The translations under genes were made by a program, and so were the position numbers. The notes beneath the pieces were generated by a model. It worked only from the letters and a program-made list of their open reading frames with translations. It was not told the DNA's origin and searched no databases. A DNA stretch of 64,000 nucleotides from a virus, in IMG/VR virus record IMGVR_UViG_3300021197_001203, positions 44,316 to 108,315 of that record; one strand, 5' to 3'. Positions 1 through 34,581 of this stretch are shown here, piece after piece. Position 1 is the first letter of the stretch. Each line of letters opens with the position of its first letter.

Positions 1-153
1 CATGGGATAATCCTCGTCATCATAATCATTACTGTCAATTTTGAACCATGATGGTGTTTTTTGATTCCACGGCAGGGGACCACCCTCATCATCGTGAGTC
101 CTCCCTTCGATTGTGTTTTTCACCAAATCCCATGCTTCATCAAATGCGGTCAT
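1..153 (-). CDS. Partial late protein with N-terminal FDEAWDLVK leader; runs off the window
   Basis: Not in the ORF track. Manual translation from ATG at 153 gives MTAFDEAWDLVKNTIEGRTHDDEGGPLPW..., open to position 1. It starts 1 bp after the stop of ORF 155..442. Confidence 0.8.
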   Translation of the reverse strand, partial: MTAFDEAWDLVKNTIEGRTHDDEGGPLPWNQKTPSWFKIDSNDYDDEDYPM

Positions 154-154
154 C

Positions 155-442
155 TTACTCAATCCTTCCTCGATCCTTGTAGCACCCTTTACAAAAGGCA
201 TTACCTTGCTTTGATTCGTAGCTTATGTTTTCATCGTTAAACTCTTTACCGCACAGCTGGCATTCATTACCTGCATAGCCGCCCGGACCCATCTTGACAA
301 TGTTCCAAGCTCGGTCAAAAGATTTCTTTACGTCTTTCGCAGCATAACAAGGACACTTAGGCTCAGTCTTAGAGCATTTCATGATGCCCTGCTTCATACA
401 AGCACAAGGGTTAGACTTGGTGGCCCCGCAACAGCAGCCCAC
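155..442 (-). CDS. Small Cys-rich protein: metallothionein-like N-half, internal FDRAWNIVK motif, C-terminal zinc finger
   Basis: GTG start directly after the upstream stop. CCC/CxC clusters, then KKSFDRAWNIVKM, then CQLC...CKGC. Confidence 0.7.
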   Translation of the reverse strand: MGCCCGATKSNPCACMKQGIMKCSKTEPKCPCYAAKDVKKSFDRAWNIVKMGPGGYAGNECQLCGKEFNDENISYESKQGNAFCKGCYKDRGRIE

Positions 443-847
443 TTACATCAAGCCTCGTAGCATATCCATGAGCTTAATTTTGTCAAGAGTCCCATAAATG
501 TCTTCACCTTCGTAATCACCCATGAAATCAGGGGCTAGTGGTTCGTATGGACCGCCTTCATAATGTCGGTCGAATAATTCAGACATATCAGGACGGTCTT
601 TCGTATATTGAGCGTAAGGACCCGCTTCGGTCCCATCATATCCTATATCTCGATAAACTTCAGGGTCTGACATCAACATTTCAATCATAGGAACCATACT
701 AGCTGGTACTTCCATAGTCACCATCCCTCCTTCTATGTCTTGGGCTATTGATTGTTGATCTGCAAAAACATCTTCATCTGTTCTGCTTAACTCTTTATTA
801 ACGACATTCCAGCTTTGCTCAAAAACAAAATCTTCGGCATCCGACAT
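443..847 (-). CDS. Acidic late protein with FEQSWNVVNK leader variant
   Basis: ORF track 443..931. The likely start is ATG 847 (MSDAEDFVFEQSW), 19 nt downstream of the late-promoter ACGA box. The upstream extension is translated A-tract sequence. Confidence 0.75.
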   Translation of the reverse strand: MSDAEDFVFEQSWNVVNKELSRTDEDVFADQQSIAQDIEGGMVTMEVPASMVPMIEMLMSDPEVYRDIGYDGTEAGPYAQYTKDRPDMSELFDRHYEGGPYEPLAPDFMGDYEGEDIYGTLDKIKLMDMLRGLM

Positions 848-880
848 ATCACACGCCACGGTACCATCGTTAATAGAATT
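848..880 (-). promoter_or_regulatory. Putative late leaderless promoter (TATTAACGA-N19-ATG)
   Basis: Same AT-rich box + ACGA + 19 nt spacing to the start codon as at 56189-56218 and 56521-56552. Confidence 0.6.
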
Positions 881-883
881 GTC

Positions 884-1042
884 GAAAAAAAATACCCCGA
901 AAAAAAATACCCGAATATACTCCAAAAACACAGGTTTTTTCGATCAAAATGCCACCATGACAGCCCTGACAAAAAAATATCAGAAAAATCGCCGAGCTGC
1001 GTATGCGGTGAGGCGGGCGCAGCCCGCCAAAAAAAAAAAAAA
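884..1042. repeat. A/T-tract cluster, GC hairpin (1012-1028) and A14 run
   Basis: CGAAAAAAAATACCC occurs twice, with several more A/T tracts. GGCGGGC-GCA-GCCCGCC is followed by 14 A. Confidence 0.7.
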
Positions 1043-1054
1043 TATCGGCACCGA

Positions 1055-1360
1055 AGCCTAGCCATTGCTCAATGGGTGTGGCGGGCTAACCACCATTCAC
1101 CAATGCCATTGCCCAGCCCCATTCAATAGCTAAACCCATTCGATCAGACCAGCTTGAGAACACATTGGTGAATGGCTGGGCTGAAACGCCCAGCAACACA
1201 CCCATTCAAGCCTAAATCTAGGGCTATTGACGGCTATCTGAGGCCATTCACGCCCATCCAGCCCACCGTATATCATTCGGGCTGGTTGCATTGGTCAATG
1301 AGGCCACATTGACACGCCATTCACCCATTCGCCAATCCCATTGACCAATGCCCAGCCAAA
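1055..1360. repeat. Dense array of CATT[CG]/[CG]AATG and CAGCC/GGCTG short motifs; probable terminus, packaging or origin region
   Basis: Roughly 20 CATT[CG]-type copies in both orientations within about 300 bp of non-coding DNA between divergent gene arms. Confidence 0.6.
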
Positions 1361-1633
1361 GCGCAGATGTTCGTGATATAATGAAAGTGGGTTATTGGGA
1401 TAGGTGTCTTAGGTTGGCTGGACGAAAAGAGCATACTGCGGGCTTATCGAGACACGTATGACACGATGGACAGACACAATATACTACTTTTACAAAGAAC
1501 GATTTAATTATACTCTGATTTAGAGTATTATAGAGAGGCTGTCCAGTGTCCAACGTGGGTTTTGTCCTATGTTATCGATGTCTGTTAGAAACAGCCTAGA
1601 AAGGGGTGTTTAGGCTGGTTTGACCAACAGTGC

Positions 1634-1682
1634 TTAAGTAGGGTGTTCAACCCCGTAGGGGTATGTAGTCCGATGTGGCTAC
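1634..1682 (+). promoter_or_regulatory. Early promoter (TTAAGTAGGG) plus 5' leader hairpin
   Basis: TATA-like box with GGG, a C-run, then a GTAGTC...GGCTAC stem. The same layout occurs at 8544, 14187 and 15493. Confidence 0.65.
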
Positions 1683-1703
1683 GATTAAATGGAAGTGTAA
1701 AAT

Positions 1704-4700
1704 ATGAGTATGACAGAAATAATGAATGTAATGAGAATGATACTAGGCAGTCTATTGCCTAGCGTATTCGGCCAAAAGGCTGGATTAGAGATGACTGTAA
1801 TGAGTGAGGCTAGAATCGGTGAAGCTGCCGATCAATTATACCACACCGATTTAGTGCTAATACAACAAGAACTACGCACATTATCGCACGTTGTTATCAC
1901 CAATGAGTGGACTGGTGAACACCCAAAGAGAACCGATATGACACATGGTCTTGAAGCACAAATGAAAGTGGACAGATTAATCAAAGCGTCAGCAACACTA
2001 GAGACATACGCAAATGGCTGTGAATGTATCGAATGTAAGTTTGTAGTAGCAAAGGAGATGCCTAGCCTAAAGAATGTAGTATTAGGGACACCAGTGTCCT
2101 CATTCACATGGACAGGGACAGGTATGGTCGAAGAGGCCATTACACCTGACCCAGCACTAGAATTAGATGTGCCTATTACAGAAGATGAAATTAGGTATCA
2201 CATGAAGAAGTGGAACGGTGTAATACGGTCAACCTTCGTATGGCAACACAAAATGAATGCTGCTGAATTGATCGAAGATTTGCGTAAAGCGTCTTATCCT
2301 GCGGCTGGATATGAACCGACCTATGTTGGTGGTGGCAGTGATGCAGAACACGATTGGGTTGAGGCTAACTATAATTTCGATTCAGAATATGATAGAGAAA
2401 AGAATCGAATGAATGCTTCAATGGTAGTAGTGAATGAGGCTAGAACTGCAAATGGGTATAACCTCGATAGGGATAGGACAATACACGATGTTCAGCCAGT
2501 AGTTAAGTCAATGAAAGAAGTGGAGGGCTGGACACAAGAGATGCTCTATATTATTATCCGTGATAGCACAAACGCATCTGATCGAGTGGAGGCGGCTGAA
2601 ATGCTTGTTGAGCTAAAACAGAAGCAATTACACAGCTATCTGAAAGACAACCTAAAACCATCTGTCTTTAGAGCCGTGGATTTTGTTATTGGTTGTATGC
2701 CTAGCGACCTAGATTTGAACACGACAGTGGTGCAGGAATCCCGTGTTAATGATGAAGAACTTAGAGGCTTTCAAGACTATCGCATGGGTGCAACACATCA
2801 GGCTACTGATGGTCTATACTATGAGACACCATTAGATGAATGCCTGTGGCAGATTCTTGACCGAGAAGATGTGGAGGCTAATTGTGGCTTAGAAGAGGGT
2901 GAAATAACCGAAGCGGCTTGGAAACAATTTCTTGCGTTGCATAAGGATGCCTTCGCTAGTGCGGTTTGTGCGTTGGCTTCGGAATATTACAATGATTATC
3001 ATACACCAAAAGATGACTTGAGCGATACAGTAGTGCAGGAATCAAGAACTAGAATGTCATATATGTTCAAAGAAGGAGATGAATATCCAGTCTCAGTGGC
3101 AAATAAATCTCAAGCTCACAAAATGCTTGTTCATATGATTGCTCATGCTTCGGGGGACGGCACACCTATTGCTATCGTTGTGGCCAACACATATGCAGAT
3201 GAAGCCTTCGACATACCTATGGAAACTCCACATTCAGGAGATGAGTTATTGCATGGGACATATCAAGCAGTCAAAGAAGTTAGAGACGGACAGAGCGTTC
3301 ATGTTCAATTAAGTCGAGACGATGAAAGATTCGATCACACGACAGTAAAAACTAGCCATGTATGGGACAGGAGGACTTTGACTAATTCAGACATTAACAG
3401 ACTTAGAGAGCAATGGAATAGAGAGTTAGATGGTTTAGATTCAGACTCAAGATTCTTTCCTTATTCGATAACTGGTGCGAGGGCTGCTTCTAGCTTAATT
3501 GGCCAGCTTCTGACTAAAGCAGAAGATGATGATTATGGCGGTTCAGTAATGGTCAATGTTCTATGTGCCGAATACAAAGCAGAACAGGTGTTGCGTGTGT
3601 ATAATTTGAAAGATGAGTTTGGCGATCAGATTATGTCTCAAGCGGCTGGGTATAATCTCCCAATGACCGATGTAAGTCTGTTAGAGATGAGTCATTCAGT
3701 ACCACTCATTGGTTATCGTGAGGCTAAAAATACCTTTATTTCATTAGATGGAGGTCGCTGGAGTCTTTCATGGGCTATTACTGGTAGTTATGATGATATG
3801 ACTAATGAGTCGCCTAGAATAGAGATTAGCAACCATTACGTTATTGACAAATCAATTAGAGATTTGTGCGACCACATATTAACACGAAAAGACAGTGGTC
3901 GCTTACTAACCACAGGACAGGTAAAGTCTGATGTGTTAGTCAAAGCCACAAGTAAAGAAAACACATATCTTGTTTCAGACCACCAGTTAAAGATAGTCAA
4001 GAAGGATTTGGCTGACCTTCGATCAGCCGCACAGCTCTCGCTAGATGACACAGTAGTCCATGAGGTTAGATTGGACATACCTGATGAGCATTGGGACACA
4101 CTGATGGAGACATTACTACTAGATACTGAAACAATGGCAATAGAGCCGTCTGAGAGGGACAGAATACGTGAGGCTTTGGATAGTGTCGAGACAGTCAATC
4201 CTTTCTTTGATAGAGGTCAATTGCATTGTGGATTTGATGTTCTTAAGAATCCACTTTACAGAATATCTCTTGCTGATGCGATTAATGTATGTAAAGCAGG
4301 AGGATTAGTGTGGTTGGCTAATGAATCTCAAGATAACTATGGAGGGGAGGACAGCAGACACTATTCATACCCCGTTGAGAACCATGAAGACCTATATGAT
4401 TATGAAGATAGTGAAGAATTATTGATCGTATTAGAACCAATGTTTTACAATAAGCATGGTAATTTACTGGAGGGACATATACTACCTAATTCTAAAGATG
4501 GTGTATGGAAGGTGTCATTGACTCTAGCTAGAGATGCGAGACATAGATTAGCTGATGAAACACACTTCGATGAAGAGCATATTGAAGGCGAAATTAAGTC
4601 ATGGTTAGAGGACATAGACTACCGTGTCCTTGAGTGCGACATTATAGATGTATCAAACATCCCTAATGCTAACGATGGGGTCTATGACTTAGGTGATGCT

Positions 4701-5420
4701 GTAAAGAATCAATTAATGGCTGTCGAGACAGAAGAAGAGGTCAAAGAAATAGCGATTCTTTATCAGACCCGTCAAGCATGGTTGGATGGTTTCAGACACA
4801 AGAATGAGGAAGGTGAATATGAATTGCTTGAGCCTAGCACCAAAGAACAAATTGACGCTTTGTATGTCCCATTACCTAATTCAGTCGTTCTTGATGTGAT
4901 AGAGCAATTACAACCAGTATGGGGTTATCATTGGTCAAAGGTAGTAGGCAATCTTGATACTGTGTCTGATCAGATATTTCACATAATGAACCACGACAAT
5001 AGGAATCCATTGTCAGTCAGTTTCCATAAGCATGGTATAGACGGAGATAGAACCATGCAGAATTGGATGGGGGACAACGGACTGGGACATACATCAATGA
5101 GTATGAATGACGTGATAGCCTACCGACTTACAGACGGCTGGGTGTATCACAGTTGCAGAGCTTTAGGATGGGCGTGGTTGCCTGTTATTCATCAGGCTCA
5201 AGGGGCAGAGAATATGACTCGCTTTGAAAAGGTAAAAGCAATGATTAATCTTGATACAAACAGGATTCCGCTTCAAGAGGGAGAATTAGAATTGATTGAG
5301 GCTATGGTTAATGGTTTTAACCATCCCCGTATCAATGACTCATGGGGGGAACTCAATGAAGATGGAATGTTTTGGGCTACAAAAGCCATGGAAACTCTGA
5401 GTCATGAGGTGATCGAATGA
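1704..5420 (+). CDS. Large modular early protein (polyvalent/polyprotein-like) with repeated linkers and a YodL-like domain near the C-terminus
   Basis: 1238 aa, acidic. Five xxxVV[QNHS]E[SAV]R-type motifs. QIFHIMN...GHTSMSMNDVI...CRALGW resembles the YodL-like H[TS]S[LM]SV[GS]DV signature. Confidence 0.75.
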   Translation: MSMTEIMNVMRMILGSLLPSVFGQKAGLEMTVMSEARIGEAADQLYHTDLVLIQQELRTLSHVVITNEWTGEHPKRTDMTHGLEAQMKVDRLIKASATLETYANGCECIECKFVVAKEMPSLKNVVLGTPVSSFTWTGTGMVEEAITPDPALELDVPITEDEIRYHMKKWNGVIRSTFVWQHKMNAAELIEDLRKASYPAAGYEPTYVGGGSDAEHDWVEANYNFDSEYDREKNRMNASMVVVNEARTANGYNLDRDRTIHDVQPVVKSMKEVEGWTQEMLYIIIRDSTNASDRVEAAEMLVELKQKQLHSYLKDNLKPSVFRAVDFVIGCMPSDLDLNTTVVQESRVNDEELRGFQDYRMGATHQATDGLYYETPLDECLWQILDREDVEANCGLEEGEITEAAWKQFLALHKDAFASAVCALASEYYNDYHTPKDDLSDTVVQESRTRMSYMFKEGDEYPVSVANKSQAHKMLVHMIAHASGDGTPIAIVVANTYADEAFDIPMETPHSGDELLHGTYQAVKEVRDGQSVHVQLSRDDERFDHTTVKTSHVWDRRTLTNSDINRLREQWNRELDGLDSDSRFFPYSITGARAASSLIGQLLTKAEDDDYGGSVMVNVLCAEYKAEQVLRVYNLKDEFGDQIMSQAAGYNLPMTDVSLLEMSHSVPLIGYREAKNTFISLDGGRWSLSWAITGSYDDMTNESPRIEISNHYVIDKSIRDLCDHILTRKDSGRLLTTGQVKSDVLVKATSKENTYLVSDHQLKIVKKDLADLRSAAQLSLDDTVVHEVRLDIPDEHWDTLMETLLLDTETMAIEPSERDRIREALDSVETVNPFFDRGQLHCGFDVLKNPLYRISLADAINVCKAGGLVWLANESQDNYGGEDSRHYSYPVENHEDLYDYEDSEELLIVLEPMFYNKHGNLLEGHILPNSKDGVWKVSLTLARDARHRLADETHFDEEHIEGEIKSWLEDIDYRVLECDIIDVSNIPNANDGVYDLGDAVKNQLMAVETEEEVKEIAILYQTRQAWLDGFRHKNEEGEYELLEPSTKEQIDALYVPLPNSVVLDVIEQLQPVWGYHWSKVVGNLDTVSDQIFHIMNHDNRNPLSVSFHKHGIDGDRTMQNWMGDNGLGHTSMSMNDVIAYRLTDGWVYHSCRALGWAWLPVIHQAQGAENMTRFEKVKAMINLDTNRIPLQEGELELIEAMVNGFNHPRINDSWGELNEDGMFWATKAMETLSHEVIE

Positions 5421-8602: not shown

Positions 8603-9484
8603 ATGATTAATGAACAAAATATAGAACAACAACAATACGATGAAAACTTGTGTATAGCTTGCGGCTATAAGTCGCTTGAATACTGTGATGACACTAGCTT
8701 AATGCCTAGTGAATATGCTAGAAGGATGATTTGCACGTCATGTGGTAAATCCACCGAGTTTTACGGTGAAGTCATTTGGACGCACTTAGAGCAGGATGAG
8801 AGACATGATGAGATTACAGACGACTGTGCTGACCTGATAATACAAGCGACAAAAGTAAACCAATTGATTAGTAATTGGTGTGAGCCTTTAGAAGAAGTAA
8901 TAGGGAGTTTTATTGGTTATGATCGAGAAGATTATGTGGCTTTAGATTCATTCGTAAATGCTGAATATTTTACCAAGTTTTTCAGTATCAAGAATATTGC
9001 CAGCTACTATGATGACACAAAATGGTCGCATGGACCCCATGTCCACCGTAATCGTGAGGATGGTAAAGTAGCAATGACTGATTTTATGGCGGCTACTTTC
9101 GGCAAGATAAGACTACTAGGTGTAGGGATAACCACCGAAGTCCTATGGAATTACTTATGGTTTCACACTGAAAACTACATAGAGACAAGATGTCAAGATG
9201 AGGATGATGAAGAGATTTATGAAGAATACATAAACTGGTTGAAAGGTTCTGTAAAACCAGCTTTATCGTTTATACATGAAAGAGAGTTTGCTTACGCATC
9301 TAACCTAGTGAAGAATAACACACATATGAATAGTAGCTGGGCAATTAAACACATGAAGCCGTTTAGCTTAATGCAACAAGCGATAGAATGTGCCATACGA
9401 GGGGACATAGAGATGTTTGAAGAGAATAGAAGAGAATTGAGCAATGAGTATTACGAAAGAAGGAACGGGGGGCGATATGTATGA
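8603..9484 (+). CDS. Hypothetical protein with N-terminal zinc ribbon
   Basis: 293-aa ORF; CIAC...CTSC. Confidence 0.75.
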   Translation: MINEQNIEQQQYDENLCIACGYKSLEYCDDTSLMPSEYARRMICTSCGKSTEFYGEVIWTHLEQDERHDEITDDCADLIIQATKVNQLISNWCEPLEEVIGSFIGYDREDYVALDSFVNAEYFTKFFSIKNIASYYDDTKWSHGPHVHRNREDGKVAMTDFMAATFGKIRLLGVGITTEVLWNYLWFHTENYIETRCQDEDDEEIYEEYINWLKGSVKPALSFIHEREFAYASNLVKNNTHMNSSWAIKHMKPFSLMQQAIECAIRGDIEMFEENRRELSNEYYERRNGGRYV

Positions 9485-9987
9485 GTAAAGCTGTGTCGAT
9501 CAGTCTTGAAGAGATGGATGCTTTTATGGAGGCTCAATTCTTTACTAGATTAGAGCCTGACCAAGTGGGGCATACTTGTTATGAGTGGGTCTATGAACAA
9601 GAGATGAATCATAGATATGCCCCAAACTGTAAGATTAGAATCTATTCAAGTATAGACCGTAATGGTGAATCAAGAGCTAAAGGTTCGGATGCAATAAGAG
9701 TAGTATTGACAGACCCTAAAGGCTATCCCTTCTGTAAAGCTTTCAAGCGTGTGCATAGAGTCAAAGGCTGGAGGCTTAACCTGTTAAGAAGATACGAGCC
9801 TGTGTTGCATGAGCCATGGAATTATACGTGGGCTGAGGAATACTGTTGTCCTAAGTGTAAGAACGGATTGCTAAGGACACGTTGGGGTAAAAAGGGTAGC
9901 TTCATGGGTTGTTCTAATTATCAATTGAGTAATCCCGATCCATGTAAATATACTGAACCCGTAATATTGCAGGAGGTATTACAATGA
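9481..9987 (+). CDS. Protein with C-terminal topoisomerase-type C4 zinc finger
   Basis: CPKC-x-GLLRTRWGKKGSFMGCSNY...CKYT matches the zf-C4_Topoisom pattern. Confidence 0.75.
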   Translation: MSKAVSISLEEMDAFMEAQFFTRLEPDQVGHTCYEWVYEQEMNHRYAPNCKIRIYSSIDRNGESRAKGSDAIRVVLTDPKGYPFCKAFKRVHRVKGWRLNLLRRYEPVLHEPWNYTWAEEYCCPKCKNGLLRTRWGKKGSFMGCSNYQLSNPDPCKYTEPVILQEVLQ

Positions 9988-10208
9988 AAATAGACTTAAG
10001 CGAAACAAAACCTGTGTATGAATTACACATTTGGTATGATAAAACAGAACCACCATTAGGTGAGTTCGATGAGTTTGTAAAGTATGAAAATGCTAACGAA
10101 GCGATAGAAGCATATCACAAATTAGATTGTGCATACAAGATACTCATAGAGTATGCAGGTGATGATGGTGATGTGTTGTTGGAACACAGCAGGGGTGATG
10201 ACAAATGA
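9984..10208 (+). CDS. Hypothetical protein, probable paralog of 17119..17364
   Basis: Coupled ORF with GGAGG RBS; shared Y-x4-W..K..P.LG..D...EA...Y..L pattern. Confidence 0.7.
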   Translation: MKIDLSETKPVYELHIWYDKTEPPLGEFDEFVKYENANEAIEAYHKLDCAYKILIEYAGDDGDVLLEHSRGDDK

Positions 10209-10744
10209 ATATATTTATCTTAGATGAAATACCAAGAATGGCGGCAAAATATCACTGTGATATTCACGTCAATAAAATGATATTAGAAACAACACAGATG
10301 TTATCAACGTGTTTAAGATTGAATGGTGCTGATGATGAGTGGATGATAGAAAGAGGCATTACTACCAAAGCAGGAACGCCATACAAAAAGACGCACCAAC
10401 ATCACCCAGCTGTGAAGTGGGCTTCTGAAACTAGAGATAATTTTGATTGGTTATCGGACTTAGGTTATTGGCTATTGATCGAATATCATTTTCGCTACGA
10501 CAAAACACACGGCTGTGAAAAACCTTTGATGAATATCATAAGATTAGACATAAATCAAAGTCATCTGATCAAAGAAGGTGAAATGACCGACTTTGCTCAA
10601 TGTATGCCCGATGAATACAAAGTCAAGGGTGATGCGGTAGCAGCTTATCGTGATTTTTACATCAATGATAAAGCTGGATTTGCTAAATGGAAACATAGCA
10701 CCCCGCAACCTGATTGGTGGCCTCATGAAGAGGTGGTGGCGTAA
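10205..10744 (+). CDS. Pyrimidine dimer DNA glycosylase / endonuclease V-like protein
   Basis: MNIFILD..P..AAKYHCD.HV.KMILET.QMLST, HQHHPAVKW, FAQCMPDEYK, AYRDFY are typical of this family. Confidence 0.85.
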   Translation: MNIFILDEIPRMAAKYHCDIHVNKMILETTQMLSTCLRLNGADDEWMIERGITTKAGTPYKKTHQHHPAVKWASETRDNFDWLSDLGYWLLIEYHFRYDKTHGCEKPLMNIIRLDINQSHLIKEGEMTDFAQCMPDEYKVKGDAVAAYRDFYINDKAGFAKWKHSTPQPDWWPHEEVVA

Positions 10745-11061
10745 TGGGATGGTGGCCATTAGACTTAGAAACAGGCAACATCAAGTGGGGTAAAACCCCA
10801 CCACATGATATGATGTGGGGTGATGCGGTTGCTGACGCTATGGACAGGATAATGGAAAATGCGTTAGAAGAAGCCATGGTTCAATGTAAGGCTATCTTTG
10901 AATCCTTAGAAGGCGAGCCAGTGATGACTCCTTTGGAGTTTTTATCGGGTATTGCCTTTTCATTGAATACTGTTGAAGAATATGCTTTCAGCCCAGCTTT
11001 CAAAGAAGCGTTGGGTGGTTATACATTACAAGTTAAATTAGTCAAAAAGGAGGATGAGTGA
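10744..11061 (+). CDS. Hypothetical protein
   Basis: Coupled ORF (TAATG overlap) with GAGGTGG RBS. Confidence 0.7.
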   Translation: MGWWPLDLETGNIKWGKTPPHDMMWGDAVADAMDRIMENALEEAMVQCKAIFESLEGEPVMTPLEFLSGIAFSLNTVEEYAFSPAFKEALGGYTLQVKLVKKEDE

Positions 11062-11062
11062 T

Positions 11063-11197
11063 ATGCCTATATGGAAAATATGTGCAAACTGTGGGATGCC
11101 TGACGGCGGGACGACAGAATGCTGGCGTGTTGAAAAGGGCGCAAGGGTTGTGTTTCCAGCTGGGCACAGCTTCTTCGATCAGGAGATGAAAAAATGA
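11063..11197 (+). CDS. Small Cys-containing protein (44 aa)
   Basis: Manual translation MPIWKICANCGMPDGG...; fills the gap and overlaps the next ATG (ATGA). Confidence 0.5.
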   Translation: MPIWKICANCGMPDGGTTECWRVEKGARVVFPAGHSFFDQEMKK

Positions 11198-11544
11198 CTC
11201 GGTATGAATACACTTGTTTAGCTTGTAATGAAACTGTTTTGTTGCGAGGCGAGCCTATGCACAATGACCTTTTGGAAAAGGGTCAATGTCCAGCTTGTGG
11301 ACATAGTGGCAGCTCTATATGGGATTACCGCTATCCTGAACGGACACCCTCTTTTGACCCGTGGAGTAAATGCCCTACTTGTAATAACAAACAAGGTTTA
11401 GCCCTCAAGGTCTTAGTGAAACATAATCCCGATTGGAGGGGCGTGGACAGATGTTTTCGTTTTTGCAGCCCTAAGTATGGTGGTTGTGGTGAAAAGTTCT
11501 TTGAAGATGGAATTGAAGGTATTGAAGGTGATGAAAATGAATGA
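11194..11544 (+). CDS. Multi-zinc-ribbon protein
   Basis: CLAC, CPAC, CPTC and C..FC....GGC motifs. Confidence 0.7.
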   Translation: MTRYEYTCLACNETVLLRGEPMHNDLLEKGQCPACGHSGSSIWDYRYPERTPSFDPWSKCPTCNNKQGLALKVLVKHNPDWRGVDRCFRFCSPKYGGCGEKFFEDGIEGIEGDENE

Positions 11545-16899: not shown

Positions 16900-17118
16900 A
16901 TAATTACGAATGTTCATGTTGTGGTCATATATGGGCTGATGATGACGGACAACCATGTGGATGTGGTGAAGAATGAGCGACACAGAAAAGACTTGTTGTG
17001 AATGGTGTAGTGAAACTATCTCATCTAAAAAAGATGAGAGACGCATTAGAGGGGAGACGATTTGTAAGGATTGTAAAGATGGTTGGAATGAGCAACCTGC
17101 TGATGGGGGGTTTTGGTA

Positions 17119-20067: not shown

Positions 20068-20069
20068 AT

Positions 20070-20363: not shown

Positions 20364-20808
20364 TGATTTTTTAGAATATCACCACGACATAATTAGGAAA
20401 TTGACCGAGGGCTGTTTTAGAGAAACTTATCTAAGAGACAAATACTATAATAAAAACACAAAGGAAATTGAAACTGAAAGAAAAAAATTAGACATTGACA
20501 GCATAACTCGGTTATCTTTTGAATTATGGAAACAAAGTCGTGTCTTTAGTAATAGACAAGTATTCCCTTTGTGTTTTGATTGTTGTTATTTGATCATGAA
20601 AGCAACAGGCAACAAGGTTTCAATAACTGAATTAGAAATGGTAGGGTTAGAAGCCGTAGGCAATCCAGTGTCGGCTCTTAAATGGCGTAAAGAAAGATGG
20701 TTTGAATCAGAAAAGGGCAAACAAGCTATTCTGAATGTGTTGTCAGATGGTGATAGCTCACACCCCTCATTCATACTAGAGCTGTATGAGGATTTAATTG
20801 AAAGGTGA
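20344..20808 (+). CDS. Hypothetical protein
   Basis: Start MKWNT after GGAGG. Confidence 0.65.
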   Translation: MKWNTIDDFLEYHHDIIRKLTEGCFRETYLRDKYYNKNTKEIETERKKLDIDSITRLSFELWKQSRVFSNRQVFPLCFDCCYLIMKATGNKVSITELEMVGLEAVGNPVSALKWRKERWFESEKGKQAILNVLSDGDSSHPSFILELYEDLIER

Positions 20809-20812
20809 TACA

Positions 20813-27133: not shown

Positions 27134-27135
27134 TT

Positions 27136-28557: not shown

Positions 28558-28783
28558 GATTAGGCTCAATACCGATAGCGGCTACACTACTATTGATTTG
28601 CACAAAGTCATGGCGATTACCACCATAGTGACTAGCGACCCACTGATCAAAGTGATGGGCAGAACAGCTATGGTAAAAATGGATATTCATATGATTGGTG
28701 GGACTATTTTTACTACTAAAGAAATGGACACAGCCGAGGCTGCAAAAGTCACTTCGCAATGGGCAGGTGATGAAGATGAGTAA
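28550..28783 (+). CDS. Hypothetical protein
   Basis: Start MNKIRL after AGGAG. Confidence 0.6.
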   Translation: MNKIRLNTDSGYTTIDLHKVMAITTIVTSDPLIKVMGRTAMVKMDIHMIGGTIFTTKEMDTAEAAKVTSQWAGDEDE

Positions 28784-29096
28784 AATCGACAAAGCGATTG
28801 AATGGTTGGAAAAACGATGTGCAAAACATCCCCCTAATGATTATCAATTTGTTAATTTTATTAAAGAAACATTGAATCAAAGTAAAGGGGTGATAACACC
28901 TCACGCTTGTTGGTTCTGTAATGGTAATCTGATATGGGGCGGCGACCATTCGTTTGAAGACTATGGGGTATTAGTGGACGAAGAAACTGGCAAGGGGGAT
29001 GGGGTAATAGCCAATTTACAATGCAGTGATTGTGGGGCATCAGCATTTTTCTTAACCGCCCCCGATGAAGGACACCAACAACCGGAGATATTCTGA
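28776..29096 (+). CDS. Zinc-ribbon protein
   Basis: CWFCNG.LIWGGDH...NL.CSDCGA; start after GGTGA. Confidence 0.7.
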   Translation: MSKIDKAIEWLEKRCAKHPPNDYQFVNFIKETLNQSKGVITPHACWFCNGNLIWGGDHSFEDYGVLVDEETGKGDGVIANLQCSDCGASAFFLTAPDEGHQQPEIF

Positions 29097-29284
29097 TGAG
29101 CGAAGAAGAGTATGAATGGGTTGATGTTGAAAACGAAGAGGATATAACTTGTATTCACCCTGAATGTAAGAGAGAGGTTTCAGTCAATTCAGGCATACAT
29201 GGTATGTGTGAGCATCATTATGCGGAGTGGTATAACGGCTACGCTAGGGCTTACGGATGGACGGAGATCGAGATTGATGGCTAA
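29096..29284 (+). CDS. Small Cys/His protein
   Basis: CIHPEC...MCEHH; TGATG coupling. Confidence 0.55.
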   Translation: MSEEEYEWVDVENEEDITCIHPECKREVSVNSGIHGMCEHHYAEWYNGYARAYGWTEIEIDG

Positions 29285-29981
29285 GATATTGTTTATTGAT
29301 AACCGTGAGAAATCGGGGTTAGAAGATTTGGTCAAAAAGTATTGCGACAAAAAAGGTTTAATGCACCAAACCAAACAAAATCTAATCACGGACTATGCTT
29401 TCAATAGTGTAGGTATAGAAGCTAAGAGTGTCCAAGATTACATGAGTAGTATGATGTCAGGGCATTTAGAGCAACAGCTACAAAATCTTGATGACAATTA
29501 CAATCAAGGGATATTATTAATTTGGGGGACTCTTGACCAGTATCTAGCTCAAGCTGTTAAAAGTGGCCGCAAGATACCATATGGTAGGGCGTGGTCATCG
29601 TGGATTGGTTCTTTAGCACGTTATAGTATAGATTTTGACGTGAATATTATTACTTTACCTGACCGATCAAGTGCAGCTAGATATATTTGTAAGAGATTTG
29701 AGAAAGACGGAACATTAAGGTCTTCATCGACTTACAGGGTATTAAGAAAAACATCTTCTGAAGATATGAGAGTGGATGTTCTTAGGGCGGCAGGGGCTAG
29801 TGCTACTATCGCTAAAAATCTATTAGATGAGTTTGGGTCAATAGCTGAAATCTCTTCGTTGCCAATAAATGAAATGACTACGCTTGCTGGTTTAGGTAAA
29901 ATACGGTCTGAAAAAATAAGTCGTGTATTGAACAGCGAAGAAAAAGTCGTCAGTGAAAAGGTGAAAATGTCTCGTTCATAA
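29277..29981 (+). CDS. ERCC4/XPF (Hef-like) structure-specific nuclease with HhH motifs
   Basis: IDNRE, TDY, IEAKS..DY.SS...G.L..Q, and C-terminal HhH2 (LLDEFGSI, GLGKIRS). Confidence 0.9.
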   Translation: MAKILFIDNREKSGLEDLVKKYCDKKGLMHQTKQNLITDYAFNSVGIEAKSVQDYMSSMMSGHLEQQLQNLDDNYNQGILLIWGTLDQYLAQAVKSGRKIPYGRAWSSWIGSLARYSIDFDVNIITLPDRSSAARYICKRFEKDGTLRSSSTYRVLRKTSSEDMRVDVLRAAGASATIAKNLLDEFGSIAEISSLPINEMTTLAGLGKIRSEKISRVLNSEEKVVSEKVKMSRS

Positions 29982-30029
29982 TGTAAGAGGTTAAGAGTGA
30001 TAACTATTACCCAAGTCTCCGGTGATACT

Positions 30030-31478
30030 ATGCTACTCAGAAACGAACAAGACACAACACGAAAATGGAGTGATTATTCCCTTGTTTCATCACCTTATGA
30101 TGGCAGCAAGTTCATTCGGCAATACATAGACCGATTCAATACCGTATCATTCTTCAATGAATATGCAGGACTGATGTCATACTTTTTTGTTATGGGTCAG
30201 ATACTTGCACCATACATGAGAATGCCTATTCATGGTATCTTTATTGATTGCCGTTTTCACTTGTATTGGATTCAACCATCTAGGTCAGGTAAATCAGTAG
30301 CTTACGAGTTTATATCTAAGATTCTGAAGCTTTGTGAAATTGATACAGAACAATTTAGTGCTGGTTCAGACGCAAAGTTAATCGGTTCTGTTATCGAAAA
30401 GGCAGTTTTTGATGAGAAGGGTGTAGCCACTGGCAAAACAGAATATGAAACCGTACCGGGAATATTGAACGGCTACAAGACGCTTTTATTCGATGAGGCT
30501 AGTGTTCTTCTCAACGATCAGAAAGCTTACTTCAGCGATAAGATTCTTTACTTACAGCAAGCAATGGCCCCAATCGGTTCTGAGACAAATGTGCTGGTAA
30601 AGCATCTAGTCTCAGGGACAGTAAGGACACCTTCGGGGGTATCACTATGGATGACTACTTATCCTCCAAAAGATATTATGCACCACGTTCTTGAGAAGGG
30701 TTTCTTTCAACGTGTATTCTTGTATCAGAATGATGTCACTGTTGAAACAAGACAGACCACAAGTGAACACCGATTGAGTGGGGCTTATGTCCCAGTGCCT
30801 GACCGTCTTTGGAAATATGAAGACCTAGCAAAATACTTTTTAGACATCAGAGACGAAATAAAAGGTAGGTTGTTTGAGGCAGCAGGTATAACAGAAGAAG
30901 AATGGGGGCAGCTATCAGACGGTGAAAGAGAGGACATAGCAATACGCCATTCTTACGACCTGTTCACAGTAGGACCGTCTTATCATGCGGCTTTGTTGAA
31001 TGCTGATGATAACTACTATGCCTTAATCAAATCTGTTGCGAATGATGACATTAGAGAAACTGCAATGAGCTTTTTACCTAACACTGAAAACTATACTATT
31101 ATTTTGAGTAATCTTATTGCAGCTAGTATGAAGTCCACCGTTATAACGGCAGAACACATCAACATGGCTCATGAAATAATCTATGATAATCTTCACAACC
31201 TCATAATATGGTTAGAACAGAAACAAAGTGTAGCCACTAAGAAGAGAACACAGGCAGAACAACATTCATGGAGAGAATCATTCAACAAATGTGTAAAGGC
31301 GTTGCACCCTAAGACAGCTAGAGAAGTTGTGAAGAAAGCAGAATTAGAACAAAGATATGCTCAGGCTAATCAAGTAAGTGTCAAGACAGCCAAGAGGCGT
31401 TTGGATAAGTTGATCGGCAATAAGACAGCCGAGAGATTCATGAAAGGCCGTGTGGCTTATGTTGCTATGAATTGGTGA
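30030..31478 (+). CDS. P-loop ATPase, putative replicative helicase (AAA+/MCM-related) with C-terminal wHTH
   Basis: PSRSGKS, S.AKLIGS, LLFDEAS and GFFQR (Arg finger). Start at 30030 after GGTGA. Confidence 0.65.
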   Translation: MLLRNEQDTTRKWSDYSLVSSPYDGSKFIRQYIDRFNTVSFFNEYAGLMSYFFVMGQILAPYMRMPIHGIFIDCRFHLYWIQPSRSGKSVAYEFISKILKLCEIDTEQFSAGSDAKLIGSVIEKAVFDEKGVATGKTEYETVPGILNGYKTLLFDEASVLLNDQKAYFSDKILYLQQAMAPIGSETNVLVKHLVSGTVRTPSGVSLWMTTYPPKDIMHHVLEKGFFQRVFLYQNDVTVETRQTTSEHRLSGAYVPVPDRLWKYEDLAKYFLDIRDEIKGRLFEAAGITEEEWGQLSDGEREDIAIRHSYDLFTVGPSYHAALLNADDNYYALIKSVANDDIRETAMSFLPNTENYTIILSNLIAASMKSTVITAEHINMAHEIIYDNLHNLIIWLEQKQSVATKKRTQAEQHSWRESFNKCVKALHPKTAREVVKKAELEQRYAQANQVSVKTAKRRLDKLIGNKTAERFMKGRVAYVAMNW

Positions 31479-31482
31479 TTCT

Positions 31483-32193
31483 ATGTTAGGAAACAGATTA
31501 GCAACATTTATGCAAACAGAAAAGATAATCTCATTTAGAGTTTTTAGCTCATATGATGATGACAAGGATTACACCGACCTTGATAAGTTTCATATTGATG
31601 CTGCTGTTTTCTTCGATGGCAGAACATTCTATGTATTCACTGATGTTGTGAATGAATTAATACATAAGGGGTATAAAACTCAAGTCAGATCAAGAAAAGA
31701 AATGGGTGCTTGGATAAAAGCTTTGGATCATGAAACTACATTAGTAGGTTTTAATTCTAACAAGCTACAATACCAGCTACTACTCAAAGCATACGATATA
31801 CAATTCAAAACAATTGACTTGATGGATTCAATAGGACTCGCTGCTGCCTCTTACTATGACACTTCTAAACCACGCTTTACACTTAGAGAATGTTCTCGGT
31901 GGAATAGTGTCAAACAAAGTATATTGCCTCACTACACTTGGATGTTCACTACAATTGAATTGTTCGATGAATGGTATAGTGAAAGATTTCGTAGTGTTGC
32001 TAAGAATCTAGCAGCTGAATGCGAAATGATAGCAAAGCTAGCACACCGTATCAGGAAGAGAAAACAAGTACGCTGGCTAGATAGGGTGTCAGGAAAAGGT
32101 GTTGCGATACCTATGGACTTCTATGGTCAAATCATACCTAGAGGTTTTTTCAAAGGGGCTAAAGATGACCCATCTCTTGAAGGTAGCGAATAG
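31483..32193 (+). CDS. Degenerate RNase H-fold (DEDD/YprB-like) exonuclease homolog
   Basis: TLVGFN...Y.LL, TIDLM, RFTL..C...N are retained, but the acidic catalytic residues appear substituted. Confidence 0.5.
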   Translation: MLGNRLATFMQTEKIISFRVFSSYDDDKDYTDLDKFHIDAAVFFDGRTFYVFTDVVNELIHKGYKTQVRSRKEMGAWIKALDHETTLVGFNSNKLQYQLLLKAYDIQFKTIDLMDSIGLAAASYYDTSKPRFTLRECSRWNSVKQSILPHYTWMFTTIELFDEWYSERFRSVAKNLAAECEMIAKLAHRIRKRKQVRWLDRVSGKGVAIPMDFYGQIIPRGFFKGAKDDPSLEGSE

Positions 32194-33943
32194 TATCAGG
32201 ATGCACGATGTTGCTTAATTGATCGATAGTAGTCACGCCACCTTTGTCTAAGAATCGTTGCACGTTATGGTTAGGGTTTTCTAAATGGAACGCTGTTTCC
32301 GGTTGCACAGGAGGTAATGCCCCCAGTGCTTCTTCAGTAGCCCTACCAAAGTCTGTACCCATTTGGAACGGTATAATTGATTTAGCGTGATATGCGGGTA
32401 CTGATACTTTTTTCCCAGTGATTGGATTAATGTAGCTGAAACCTCTTGTTTGTTGTGTACCACGGTTTGACCCTTTAGGTGCAAAGGCATATCCAGCACC
32501 CGAAAGTATGCTGCCCATCGTCCTTACTTTTCCTTCACGATTCCCAAATTGAAAGCTATCCAATAATGCGTCTCTAGGTTGTCTAGTTAATGAATTACTT
32601 TTCATGCCTTTTTTTGAAAACTTTCTCATACCCTCTAATAATATTTCATCTAAGAAAGCTCTAGGCACAGGAACAGATGAACTTCTAAGTTGAGGGACGC
32701 TAGAGAAATCACTGTATTTTGCTTTAGTATTAAACAACACGTCTTTTCTAGGGTCTTTAGATATTTGTCCTATTCTTGGTCTAGGCACCCACCCTTTAGG
32801 AAACCTACCAAAAAAATCTGTTCTCTTTAACGGTGGAAGATTCGCAGCACCATACCTCAATTGTTCACCTGTATTCCCTGCATATTTTATTGATGTCTCT
32901 AAGGGGTCTAAACCAGTCCCAGTAATAGGTGATCGATTTTGGGCTATACCGAAGAGAGAGGCTACTGGGTCAGAATAAGATGCGTGATTGACCGAAGCAA
33001 AATCAGGTAATATTTTACTGTATGTCATCGGCATAAATCTAGCCATCCCCGTAGGGTTTTCAAGAATACTAAACATATCGGGATTACGGCGTGTCATCTC
33101 TTCAACTAATTTGAAAGTATCACGGAATAATTTTGCAGTTCCTTTATTAGACCCTCCAAAGTTTTTCTTTTTACCAGTAATAGGGTCGGTCCTCCAATCA
33201 GGCATTTTTGGTTTCCAATTACCAGCTGGATTTTCATCAGTCGATTCTCCCATCCACGCTGGGGCTTCATTTGTAGTGCCTCTAGCCTCTAGTGCTTCTC
33301 TTTTCCCTTCTTTATTATATCCCTCCGGTTCGTGCCATTTACTACCTACGGCAGCAACACTCATATCAACACAGGTAGGACTACCGAATAACACATCAGG
33401 CATACGACCACCAAAATGATCTTCGATTTCATTTACAGATAAGTCCTGTATATCAGATAAGAACGTAGGGGTTATACCCATTTGCTTACTGTCAGGGCCA
33501 CCCGTTTTACCCCAATCAGACGTTGCCCCTGTATGTCCTCTTCGATACATATCAGAACCCCAGCCACCCGGCAAAACCTTTTCTCCACCTACTCCTGAAA
33601 ACAATTCCATTGACATAAGTTCCTTTTGTTTAGGGGACATATTAGGACGCTCAGGTGCTAACACTGCTACACTCAATTCTTCTTCAGATGCTTTCGCAAT
33701 ATGTTTGCGGCTACCTCCCGCGCCCAGCTGCCTACGCATTGTAGGTCTAACATTACCCCTTGATTTGTTTCTTGAGTATCTTCTTTGAGTCTTTGCTCGT
33801 TTATTCTTACGGCTCTTATTCCAAGCTCTAGCTTTAGCTTGTCTCTCAGCTCGGCCACTTATTGTATTGCGTGAATAACCAGTGAACTTACCCTTGTCCT
33901 CATTCTTGGTCATCTCCCAAGCCTCATCAAAAGGATCAGTCAC
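32159..33943 (-). CDS. Late protein: FDEAW leader, Arg/Lys-rich segment and C5 DNA-cytosine methyltransferase-like domain
   Basis: Begins MTDPFDEAWEMTK. Motif I-like MELFSG, DI.DL, motif IV-like PDVLFGSPTC..MS.A, motif VI-like ILENP.G, and KRTDFF. Confidence 0.7.
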   Translation of the reverse strand: MTDPFDEAWEMTKNEDKGKFTGYSRNTISGRAERQAKARAWNKSRKNKRAKTQRRYSRNKSRGNVRPTMRRQLGAGGSRKHIAKASEEELSVAVLAPERPNMSPKQKELMSMELFSGVGGEKVLPGGWGSDMYRRGHTGATSDWGKTGGPDSKQMGITPTFLSDIQDLSVNEIEDHFGGRMPDVLFGSPTCVDMSVAAVGSKWHEPEGYNKEGKREALEARGTTNEAPAWMGESTDENPAGNWKPKMPDWRTDPITGKKKNFGGSNKGTAKLFRDTFKLVEEMTRRNPDMFSILENPTGMARFMPMTYSKILPDFASVNHASYSDPVASLFGIAQNRSPITGTGLDPLETSIKYAGNTGEQLRYGAANLPPLKRTDFFGRFPKGWVPRPRIGQISKDPRKDVLFNTKAKYSDFSSVPQLRSSSVPVPRAFLDEILLEGMRKFSKKGMKSNSLTRQPRDALLDSFQFGNREGKVRTMGSILSGAGYAFAPKGSNRGTQQTRGFSYINPITGKKVSVPAYHAKSIIPFQMGTDFGRATEEALGALPPVQPETAFHLENPNHNVQRFLDKGGVTTIDQLSNIVHPDTIRYLQEMGHL

Positions 33944-34581
33944 TGGACATCACCTACATTTAACATCAATTCAGGGTCAATGTCTAGCAGCTGTTCTTGA
34001 TCGTACTGCCCTCTTAAGGGCATACCTTGTAAAATAAGCTGTCTTTGCATATCAGGGAAGTAATTTGATGATAGTTCAATAGGGACAGGGACGTTTCCTA
34101 AGAGTTGAAGTATAGCCATCATCCTGTGTCTGCCTTCATGCCCCACAATATCTCTTGATTGAGACACTTTGCCCAAAGTAGTATCGTTATTTGATGCAAT
34201 TCTTAGATTGGGGATATAAGTAGGCTTGCCCTCTTTCATTCCCTGTATAATATTTTCTGTACGAGGGTTTTTTTGTTTCTTCTTCTTATCCCACCACATA
34301 TAGTCCTGTAATACGCTGCCGTACATTTGTTCACCTTTATGATTCCCTTTTATTGGAGAGGTGAGCCTGAGATAGTCCTGTGGCTTCATCATGGTCTTAG
34401 TATGGTAGCTTCCAAAAACCGGACTCCCCCCCATCGGATAATAATTCGTTTCTCCATCTATGCCGGGTTCTCGCCAGCTTCTGCCCTTGTCGTTTTCTTC
34501 TTTATCCCAAAACTCCGTAGGGCCGACTTTGTATGTAGCCATTTTGACTAATGCCCAACCATGTTGAAAGGCATCGCTCAT
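33940..34581 (-). CDS. Late protein: FQHGW leader and ParB/Srx-like domain
   Basis: Likely start ATG 34581 (ATGA overlap): MSDAFQHGWALVK. Contains M.P.DYL.L, P.L.I and IVGHEGRHRMMA...G..PVP. Confidence 0.7.
   Translation of the reverse strand: MSDAFQHGWALVKMATYKVGPTEFWDKEENDKGRSWREPGIDGETNYYPMGGSPVFGSYHTKTMMKPQDYLRLTSPIKGNHKGEQMYGSVLQDYMWWDKKKKQKNPRTENIIQGMKEGKPTYIPNLRIASNNDTTLGKVSQSRDIVGHEGRHRMMAILQLLGNVPVPIELSSNYFPDMQRQLILQGMPLRGQYDQEQLLDIDPELMLNVGDVQ

Follow-up and report, generated by a model that had tools for sequence, protein, structure and literature searches.

An amphipathic peptide shared by unrelated proteins of a marine archaeal virus looks like an address tag and may be a capsid-loading signal

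Results

Five tagged genes in the window

The window analysed here, a stretch of 64,000 nucleotides, is taken from a virus record of 108,315 bp (G000), in which it covers bases 44316-108315. A sequence-only reading of this DNA had claimed that a short peptide is shared by five proteins, and all five peptides were found on the minus strand where that reading had placed them. Six-frame translation of the window gave these five matches only, even with a loosened regular expression. The genes are listed below with the codons of the tag.

1..153 (contig 44094-44468), minus strand: the opening 51 codons for a tagged protein of 124 aa, the rest of which lies past the window's left edge; MTAFDEAWDLVK begins at window position 153, tag codons at 118-144
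155..442, minus strand: 95-aa protein with a Cys-rich N-terminal module (GCCCGATKSNPC...), the internal tag KKSFDRAWNIVK at 293-319, and a Cys-containing, zinc-finger-like C-terminal body
443..847, minus strand: acidic protein of 134 aa with the variant tag MSDAEDFVFEQSWNVVNK at 794-823, which has one additional residue ahead of the Lys
32159..33943, minus strand: protein of 594 aa whose start codon is GTG; tag (V)TDPFDEAWEMTK at 33905-33931, then an Arg/Lys-rich segment of ~65 aa and a weakly C5-methyltransferase-like body
33940..34581, minus strand: 213-aa protein with the tag MSDAFQHGWALVK at 34543-34569, followed by an invariant MA[ST]YKVGPTEFWD segment

The start codon of the 1..153 gene lies one base past the stop of the upstream gene, and the acidic body of its product has no Pfam or PHROG match and no homologue in four related genomes. 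The gene at 443..847 is the first of the tag array and adjoins a divergent intergenic region; its product has a weak match to a PHROG of unknown function. At two other loci, L030 and L012, the Cys module of the 155..442 protein is followed by KKSF[DE]xAW and then by a different body, indicating that the tag also occupies a non-N-terminal position in a conserved arrangement.

The two remaining proteins had been called methyltransferase-like and ParB-like. For 32159..33943, the last gene of the minus-strand block, the first label is weakly supported by a PHROG DNA methyltransferase (phrog_116, 7.9e-5), whereas the match to the Pfam C5 methyltransferase family (PF00145, E=0.023) is below the cut-off, and no relative of the body was found in the PDB. 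The type of basic segment seen in this protein occurs in other genomes as a separate module after a tag. The body of the 33940..34581 protein contains HEGRHRMAAILQLLGN, its HEGRHRMAA motif is invariant in 10 sequences, and the tag is present in all nine homologues found, as MTAFDRAW... or MSDAFQHGW.... The top Foldseek matches of its AF2 model (Osa, sulfiredoxin (Srx), PadC and ParB) are all ParB/Srx folds, but their E-values are weak (0.2-3), the model is of low confidence (pLDDT 58) and Pfam gives no ParB match; the model suggests that the protein possibly has a ParB/Srx-like fold.

Distribution and conservation of the tag

The consensus of the tag is M-T-A-F-D-x-A-W-x-[LIV]-[VL]-K-[AM]-[PD]. 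The sequence-only reading had suggested scanning the remaining genome and looking for enrichment at N-termini. Strict matches number 19 in the whole 108,315-bp record; each is on the minus strand, and 17 stand at the start of an ORF. By chance, 0.22 would be expected according to 100 nucleotide shuffles, or 0.06 when the residues of the ORFs are shuffled 300 times. About 17% of the ORFs of this virus, or one protein in six, are tagged. A 10-position matrix trained on tags from contigs other than G000 gave 18 matches in G000 at 18 bits or more; the range from 12 to 18 bits was empty, and no match lay on the plus (replication) strand.

Related uncultured marine viruses yielded 340 distinct tagged proteins, the bodies of which fall into 138 unrelated BLAST clusters. 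Over 90% of tags sit at the very N-terminus, and in the first related loci retrieved (551 kb, 335 tags) a Met lies exactly three residues before the Phe in 224 cases. Information content is at background level from two residues past the Lys, which together with the BLAST clusters bears out the description of the following sequence as unrelated. The tagged genes are hypervariable, most being without a homologue even in other tag-bearing genomes.

Across 312 tags, synonymous codons are mixed (TTT 189 and TTC 123; GAC 181 and GAT 66; GCT 172, GCA 74 and GCG 47; AAA 167 and AAG 145), indicating that conservation is at the peptide level, as had been proposed, and not at the nucleotide level. The tag residues are invariant in genomes with G+C contents from 0.37 to 0.62. 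An ART-like (ADP-ribosyltransferase-like) body in the sister-clade genome G163 has no tag; it shares 49% identity over 109 aa with a tagged counterpart, in which the N-terminal add-on is the difference. In the AlphaFold prediction, the tag forms a short amphipathic helix. The unrelated bodies, the untagged sister-clade body and this prediction agree with the notion of a portable amphipathic-helix tag. One 690-aa ORF carries four tags with a conserved [AR]SGD before each internal one, and further multi-module ORFs combine the Cys module, a tag and a body, or a zincin, a tag and a basic module. The internal tags of these few ORFs are not needed by a pure N-terminal targeting signal.

A 43-bit DNA pattern of the tag was found at 58 IMG/VR loci, compared to a single contig among 185,579 species genomes. 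That contig, of 106 kb, belongs to a Poseidoniales single-cell genome and holds 16 of the 17 matches in that cell. In 150 Poseidoniales genomes a loose pattern occurred about 0.3 times per genome, which is not above background; no tag arrays were found in these genomes. The tag is also absent from two complete sister-clade viruses, and it has no homology to the capsid-targeting sequence (CTS) of phage T4, to which MTAFDxAWxLVK is unrelated. A host signal peptide was considered and rejected: the hydrophobic core, twin-arginine and host use of Sec/Tat signals are missing from what appears as a 12-residue amphipathic charged helix, and the motif is at background in the 150 host genomes. The tag thus exists, is under peptide-level selection and is portable, virus- and clade-specific and strand-restricted; from its sequence, this 12-residue peptide looks like a previously undescribed address tag.

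Predicted functions of the tagged proteins

The largest tagged family, exemplified by the gene at contig 39098-39721, is predicted from its profile and an AF2 model to belong to the ADP-ribosyltransferase superfamily. The profile matches Tpt1/KptA across the NAD-binding YHGT...G[LI]xP segment (E=1.5e-4) and DarT at E=0.12, which is above the usual significance level. The model (pLDDT 75.5) retrieves Tpt1/KptA (E 3e-4), tankyrase and pertussis S1, the structure matches having modest TM-scores of 0.3-0.4. Other tagged bodies include D12 and C5 methyltransferases, a GH-E nuclease, HTH proteins, Zn ribbons, DUF6321 and GP88. No MuF-type Pfam domain was found in the scanned tagged proteins, the tagged-protein census or the 1137-aa head protein; membership in the MuF/polyvalent head-protein toxins was rejected, as the proteins scanned have no N-terminal MuF (SPP1 gp7-like) domain.

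Genome position and strand

Every tag in G000-G005 shares its strand with the genes for TerL, portal, protease and capsid protein; the replication strand carries none. The five tagged genes of the window do lie on the minus, structural-gene strand, and the word late was drawn from strand only. Two tagged genes abut TerL. The main tag array (contig 36323-45162) lies directly beside a divergent control region and, in G000, has a gene of the opposite strand between itself and the head genes; given this arrangement the array may be an early operon, and early expression could be its mode. The tag arrays are syntenic with a cluster of membrane-protein and Arf-like GTPase genes, and no linked untagged partner gene was found inside them.

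Similarity of the tag end to sites in the capsid protein and head protease

The head protease matches Peptidase_S78 (HK97 type) and is not of the T4 gp21 type. In HK97, the S78 archetype, the capsid protein is cut at K103/S104, that is, after a Lys (PMC10275583). A matrix of the tag end (tag positions 6-11, the last six), trained on contigs other than G000, was run over G000. The best non-tag score of 34,339 positions fell on capsid protein residues 34-39 (DLLKAD), a conserved site ~35 residues into the major capsid protein. Of the top 12 scores, 5 were in the capsid protein and protease, which make up 2.4% of residues, while 719 column permutations gave a mean of 0.46 and a maximum of 3. In 27 protease orthologues, Y-x-[IL]-L-K-M occurs exactly where the S78 domain ends and GNxxVIK occurs twice in the C-terminal extension, these motifs being conserved islands within variable linkers. 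The tagless sister clade keeps the capsid and protease sites, and the matrix ranks the capsid site first there too. The tag end thus resembles sites in the capsid protein and protease, a match that has low information (two hydrophobic residues and a Lys), was sought after the capsid and protease sequences had been seen, and involves orthologous rather than independent sites. The earlier suggestion of a possible cut behind the Lys gains indirect support from it. The full tag, which the sequence-only reading had proposed to look for in scaffold, capsid and portal propeptides, is on none of the capsid protein, scaffold-like domain, protease and portal.

Discussion

By analogy with the T4 CTS, we favour a dock-then-trim capsid-loading tag, to which we give slightly less than an even chance. 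The Phe, the Ala/Trp and the [LIV]/V would form one face of a short amphipathic helix, and this face would dock its carrier onto one of the virus's own components in the assembling head, candidates being the scaffold-like C-terminal part of the protease, the interior of the capsid shell, the portal and the conserved 1137-aa head protein. The other half of the tag, [LIV]-[VL]-K and the adjoining [AM]-[PD], is similar to the putative S78 protease sites in the capsid protein and in the protease's own extension, and inside the prohead the tag would be trimmed behind its Lys. Up to ~19 proteins per virus, a set that changes fast, would then enter the virion with the DNA and reach the inside of the Poseidoniales host upon infection, among them predicted ADP-ribosyltransferase-fold proteins, DNA methyltransferases, an HNH-type nuclease, HExxH proteins and basic DNA-binding-like proteins. 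Some 19 different cargo proteins is many for one capsid, which counts against capsid loading, as do the internal tags, the place of the main array beside the control region, the low information of the cleavage-site match and the finding that none of the capsid protein, scaffold-like domain, protease and portal has a full tag. No metaproteomic study of magroviruses was found in the literature, and to our knowledge no magrovirus has been cultured so far.

The tag might instead dock onto a partner outside the virion (a host hub, the viral chaperonin, or a compartment derived from the membrane-protein/Arf-like GTPase cluster), in which case the tagged proteins would work in the infected cell and might help to take over the host early. 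Like early accessory operons, the main array is promoter-proximal, beside the divergent control region, and the synteny with the membrane/GTPase cluster points the same way. A Cpn60/TCP1-family chaperonin is encoded in 9 of the 10 tag-bearing records with an estimated completeness of 63% or more (G000-G003, G005 and five others; the exception is 70% complete), and the spacing F(i), W(i+4), hydrophobic (i+7) is typical of groove-binding helices. However, the complete tagless sister-clade genomes also have the chaperonin and the cluster, host proteins never use the motif above background, not one replication-arm protein is tagged, and the likeness of the tag end to the capsid and protease sites would be left unexplained; we regard this reading as unlikely, if still a serious candidate. 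That likeness, along with the internal tags at module junctions (in the 690-aa four-tag, Cys-module and zincin ORFs), would suit a tag that is only a recognition or cleavage element for a viral or host protease, releasing or activating modules with no role in packaging. Yet the best-conserved residues, F, D, A and W, precede the proposed scissile bond by 5-9 residues and are missing from the capsid and protease sites, and so need a separate function; at the extreme N-terminus, where most tags are, cleavage would free merely a 12-residue peptide. Cleavage as the sole role is therefore improbable.

Two further readings dispense with an address altogether. The tag could be a remnant of one expanded paralogous family, whose diverged domain kept a common N-terminal helix, or a structural cap, and in some body clusters conservation does reach past the tag, for example as K-M-P-x-Y-H-G-T. 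This is very hard to reconcile with bodies of different established folds and families (ART, D12 and C5 methyltransferases, GH-E, Zn ribbons, DUF6321, GP88), with a body that is known without a tag and with the abrupt end of conservation after the Lys. As for a nucleotide-level element, one that marks the boundary of a recombination cassette or serves translation initiation, with the peptide as a by-product, 27 identical bases are common to some G000 copies and an SD-like GGAGG precedes many starts, but the freely mixed synonymous positions, the invariance of the residues over the range of G+C contents and the internal copies, which have no start codon or SD context, make it scarcely credible.

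The capsid-loading reading can be compared to several known systems. Phage T4 carries Alt, an ADP-ribosyltransferase, among its cargo, and phage P1 packages Dar proteins, a set that the tagged enzymes also resemble. The T4 CTS is an N-terminal peptide of ~10 residues, the sole conserved part of the internal proteins IPI-III and Alt, and it directs them into the scaffolding core (PMC3012670). As in T4, the peptide described here is short, heads otherwise diverse, fast-evolving proteins and has an end that resembles predicted head-protease sites; the tagged genes are hypervariable, like the T4 internal-protein locus, and encode an enzyme set resembling the packaged one (Alt, internal proteins; PMC3012670). 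Unlike in T4, the tag has no sequence similarity to the CTS, the head protease is of S78/HK97 type, the predicted cut is after Lys rather than Glu, the host is archaeal, as many as ~17% of ORFs are tagged, some copies are internal, and packaging is a prediction.

In the giant phages phiKZ and SPN3US, as outlined in PMC10052503 and PMC7411985, the prohead protease processes the propeptides of numerous proteins inside the head, such as ejection and inner-body proteins, and the short motif at which it cuts is also found in the capsid protein. The protease family and cleavage motif of these phages differ from those of this virus. We know of no single shared leader of fixed sequence in either phage. 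Encapsulin cargo-loading peptides, which are usually C-terminal and are not removed, suffice to direct unrelated enzymes into an HK97-fold shell; they are like the tag in its proposed addressing role and different in sequence. Polyvalent and MuF proteins are reported (Iyer et al. 2017; Jamet et al. 2017) to deliver methyltransferases, ADP-ribosyltransferases, nucleases, zincins and ParB-like proteins with the phage DNA. Polyvalent proteins, MuF toxins and P1 Dar proteins have an enzyme repertoire similar to that of the tagged bodies, but these systems rely on large fused polypeptides or a MuF head domain, whereas here a 12-residue tag is carried by separate small proteins.

Thermosome-clade magroviruses are abundant viruses of ocean-surface archaea. 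We consider it possible, with somewhat more doubt than belief, that the thermosome-encoding magroviruses (group A, Apasviridae-like) have a programmable cargo system, in which a 12-residue helix would dock any protein into the prohead and be cut off after Lys by the HK97-type protease, each virion then injecting up to ~19 enzymes along with its DNA, in a set that varies with the clade. If this is true, archaeal viruses would have their first described capsid-targeting signal in this tag, which would also be minimal and transplantable.

A tag confined to one strand of the viral record

Five F-[DEQ]-x-[AGS]-W-x(3,4)-K leader peptides had been claimed, in the sequence-only reading of the window, as a candidate virion-cargo targeting or processing signal on late proteins. 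All five were found on the minus strand where they had been placed, and they are the sole matches in a six-frame translation of the window, loosened pattern included. The window spans bases 44316-108315 of one 108,315-bp record (G000, to which contig coordinates refer). The whole record contains 19 strict tag matches, 19 of 19 on the minus strand, compared to 0.22 expected by chance from nucleotide shuffles or 0.06 from residue shuffles. In 17 of the 19 the tag is the start of the open-reading frame, with the form M-[TS]-x-F-D-x-A-W-x-x-V-K, slightly extended in some, and 12 lie within ~16 genes in a main array (contig 36323-45162) that is cut by the left edge of the window. A 10-position tag matrix trained on contigs other than G000 scored the G000 tags at 18-34 bits, with nothing between 12 and 18 bits. 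The replication strand gave no match to this matrix at all, in keeping with the earlier remark that early-arm proteins lack the leader.

The tags share their strand with the following genes:

Contig 8793-9959, strand of the tags, major capsid protein
Contig 9999-11315, strand of the tags, S78 prohead protease with a 260-aa extension
Contig 16922-18715, strand of the tags, portal
Contig 20008-21378, strand of the tags, TerL

Two of the genes directly adjoining TerL are tagged (406 and 580 aa), the gene for a 71-aa Zn protein that comes after the head genes also has the tag, and the tail/fibre block ends with two tagged window genes at 32159-34581. The term "late" used in the sequence-only reading holds as far as the head-module strand is concerned; late status itself is not established, since the main array begins at a divergent intergenic region (window 848-1703) and a plus-strand GP88 gene lies between this array and the remainder of the block. 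The distribution of the heptamer TGATCGA provided no usable early/late marker.

The divergent intergenic region contains a CCATTCACCAATGCC-like 13-15-mer in four direct and three inverted copies (window 1093-1352) as well as A-rich direct repeats (883-988), which are candidate origin or operator iterons. The first gene of the replication arm (window 1704-5420, plus strand) encodes a 1238-aa protein with no Pfam match and no homologue among the seven related genomes compared. Two GP88-family (PF17338) paralogues lie left of the window. One, at contig 35447-36274 (plus strand), is untagged, and its Cys cluster and GGGD motif look like those of a radical-SAM enzyme; in the other (contig 32752-35088, minus strand), GP88 makes up the C-terminal half of a 778-aa protein, with an internal tag before it. 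CCWGG is absent from all of G000, window included, where ~119 copies are expected from base composition, and GATC is under-represented (213 vs 399 expected), a composition suggesting that the virus strongly avoids a CCWGG-specific restriction system of its host. Because CCWGG is absent, GCC is almost never used for the tag Ala that precedes TGG (1 of 294).

The tag is viral and is conserved as a peptide

A fully degenerate 36-nt version of MTAFDxAWxxVK (~43 bits) matched 58 IMG/VR loci and, among 185,579 species genomes, only one contig of 106 kb from a Poseidoniales single-cell genome, which also held 16 of the 17 loose-pattern matches of that cell. The loose pattern occurred ~0.3 times per genome in 150 other Poseidoniales genomes, with no arrays. 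Taken together, these counts indicate that the motif is viral; a reading as a host signal was rejected, the motif being at background in the 150 Poseidoniales genomes.

In 551 kb of related loci, 335 tags were found, nearly all tags of any one locus sharing a strand, with Met exactly three residues before Phe in 224. Related loci, G000, and the single-cell contig together contain 340 distinct tagged proteins; complete N-terminally tagged proteins (n = 309) have a median length of 160 aa, and the bodies that follow the tag fall into 138 BLAST clusters. In the magrovirus literature searched, such an N-terminal signal, motif or leader was not mentioned, and the best match of TerL in the GenBank phage collection was 28% identical.

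Conservation extends to positions left free by the regular expression (M 0.69, T 0.62, A 0.71, [LIV] 0.96, [VLAM] 0.90) and, to a lower degree, to the two residues after the Lys ([AM] 0.45, [PD] 0.49), beyond which information content is at background. This, with the 138 clusters, agrees with the earlier description of the sequence after the Lys as unrelated. Codons for the invariant residues are mixed and tag-bearing loci span 0.37-0.62 G+C, indicating that selection acts on the peptide, as had been proposed; a nucleotide-level element was rejected because synonymous codons are mixed. AlphaFold predicted tag residues 3-11 to be helical, at a confidence below that of the body, with F, A/W and [LIV]/V on one face, so the amphipathic helix claimed earlier is borne out as a prediction.

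Tagged proteins are diverse

The largest tagged family, which includes contig 39098-39721, continues K-M-P-x-Y-H-G-T after the tag. By profile, it matched Tpt1/KptA over the NAD-binding segment (E = 1.5e-4) and, short of conventional significance, DarT (E = 0.12), and a search with its model (pLDDT 75.5) recovered Tpt1/KptA, tankyrases, and pertussis S1; this is an ADP-ribosyltransferase (ART)-fold family. Other tagged bodies match D12 and C5 methyltransferases, GH-E nuclease, HTH_38, Zn ribbons, DUF6321, GP88, and Phage_zn_bind_8, and the alignment of tagged proteins contains sub-families with HExxH and others with a GNAT-like motif. For the five window proteins, Pfam and PHROG scans returned almost nothing, and neither the 213-aa nor the 594-aa protein gave anything useful in PDB sequence searches. 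For the 594-aa protein (window 32159-33943, minus strand), called MTase-like before, a methyltransferase match is present but weak, and the same is true of the ParB/Srx match of the 213-aa protein (window 33940-34581, minus strand), called ParB-like.

The tag is present in 9 of 9 homologues of the 213-aa protein, with F, W, and K constant and the free positions variable. G163, a complete genome of a sister clade, encodes on its replication strand an untagged ART-like protein (start MTRYYHATP) that shares 49% identity across 109 aa with a tagged protein whose start is MTAFDAAWALVKAPWYYHATP. Inside the G000 array, contig 40094-41587 (minus strand) encodes an untagged D12-class DNA methyltransferase with a DPPY motif; its homologue at the related locus L025 is tagged, so homologues can differ in tagging. 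For most G000 tagged genes no homologue exists even among four other tag-bearing genomes; they are hypervariable accessory genes.

The end of the tag resembles sites in the capsid protein and protease

A matrix of tag positions 6-11, built from tags of contigs other than G000, was used to score every non-tag G000 hexapeptide. Of 34,339 positions, the highest score went to DLLKAD, residues 34-39 of the capsid protein. Among the 12 best, five fell in the capsid protein and protease (2.4% of residues), compared to a mean of 0.46 and a maximum of 3 in 719 column permutations, a result for a short motif examined after these proteins had been seen. Alignment of 27 protease orthologues revealed conserved islands amid variable, indel-rich linkers; one, Y-x-[IL]-L-K-M, is placed exactly at the end of the Pfam S78 match (K179), and others are G-L-x-K-A-Y and G-N-x-x-V-I-K, the latter present twice. 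Residues that follow the Lys agree across tag, capsid, and protease sites (A/M/Q, then P/D/E). In HK97, the S78 archetype, the capsid protein is cut at K103/S104 (PMC10275583).

The sister clade (L162-L258; IMG/VR contigs G162-G164) comprises at least 599 contigs, with a capsid protein ~64% identical, and offers a natural control for experiments, having the same head genes and no shared leader in two complete genomes. Those genomes (106.9 kb with terminal repeats; 102.9 kb) contain no tag, and a search of their N-terminal k-mers found no alternative shared leader; a third member, the 85% complete G164, has three tags. The sister-clade capsid protein retains D-I-L-K-A-D-A-P and the protease [IL]-L-K and G-N-x-x-V-I-K, and in both complete genomes the tag-end matrix placed the capsid site first of ~33,000 positions; capsid sites of different genomes are orthologous, not independent. 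Retention of these sites in tagless genomes indicates that the putative protease motif is older than the tag, whose end copies it.

Candidate partners and mechanism

Sister genomes retain genes for the chaperonin and the Arf-like GTPase/membrane cluster as well as those for the capsid protein, protease, portal, and a 1137-aa head protein. The presence of the chaperonin and GTPase cluster in complete tagless genomes weakened both as candidates, and neither is a tag-specific partner. No untagged partner enzyme linked inside arrays is common to them, the GP88 gene beside the G000 array being missing from the related genomes G001-G003. Genes specific to the tag-bearing clade (e.g., those for 155-aa, 294-aa, and 436-aa proteins) are no more than a lead for a possible tag receptor; these three have no detectable homologue in the three-tag, 85%-complete G164.

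The chaperonin (window 12069-13703, plus strand) is a virus-encoded, thermosome-type group II protein (PF00118, E = 2.7e-136) with homologues of 34-44% identity in tag-bearing and tagless related viruses alike. From this chaperonin and the size of G000 we infer a match to magrovirus group A / Apasviridae (PMC5434244, PMC12999244). The conserved cluster adjoining the tag array left of the window (contig 28744-31834; L061/L062) includes genes for a weakly Arf/Ras-like GTPase of 242 aa, a 143-aa EF-hand protein, and M/Q/G proteins of low complexity. Homologues of the GTPase and of several neighbours are present in the tagless sister clade too; no genome compared contained a homologue of the EF-hand protein.

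In a few open-reading frames, tags occupy module junctions. A conserved Cys-rich module is followed by KKSF[DE]xAW and then variable bodies in the 95-aa window protein (155-442, minus strand) and at related loci L030 and L012, a 690-aa frame carries four tags, and one frame has the order HExxH module, tag, basic module. A free N-terminus is thus not required. As read from sequence, these internal copies argue against N-degron-like or ribosome-exit mechanisms and fit a docking and/or cleavage motif. Docking with subsequent trimming, as a capsid-loading signal, is the best-supported mechanism and may well apply, at somewhat less than even probability. That the tag docks its carriers onto a non-virion partner is distinctly less probable, and that it serves processing only is improbable. 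Capsid loading would give the tag a function analogous to that of the T4 capsid-targeting sequence (PMC3012670), from which it differs in being unrelated in sequence and in its setting of an HK97-type protease and an archaeal host.

One short tag unites about one-sixth of the proteome and hundreds of metagenomic "hypothetical" proteins as one functional class, and it provides a testable rule for finding members of this class. Magroviruses rank with the most abundant archaeal viruses of the surface ocean, and no function has been assigned to most of their genes. Even if the tag does not load the capsid, it is a virus-specific signal for sorting or docking that has not been described before. If it does, archaeal viruses would have evolved T4-style cargo targeting independently and with an HK97-type protease; many effectors so far hidden (ADP-ribosyltransferase-fold proteins, methyltransferases, and nucleases) would be injected, and the tag would be a minimal peptide to package foreign proteins into HK97-fold shells.
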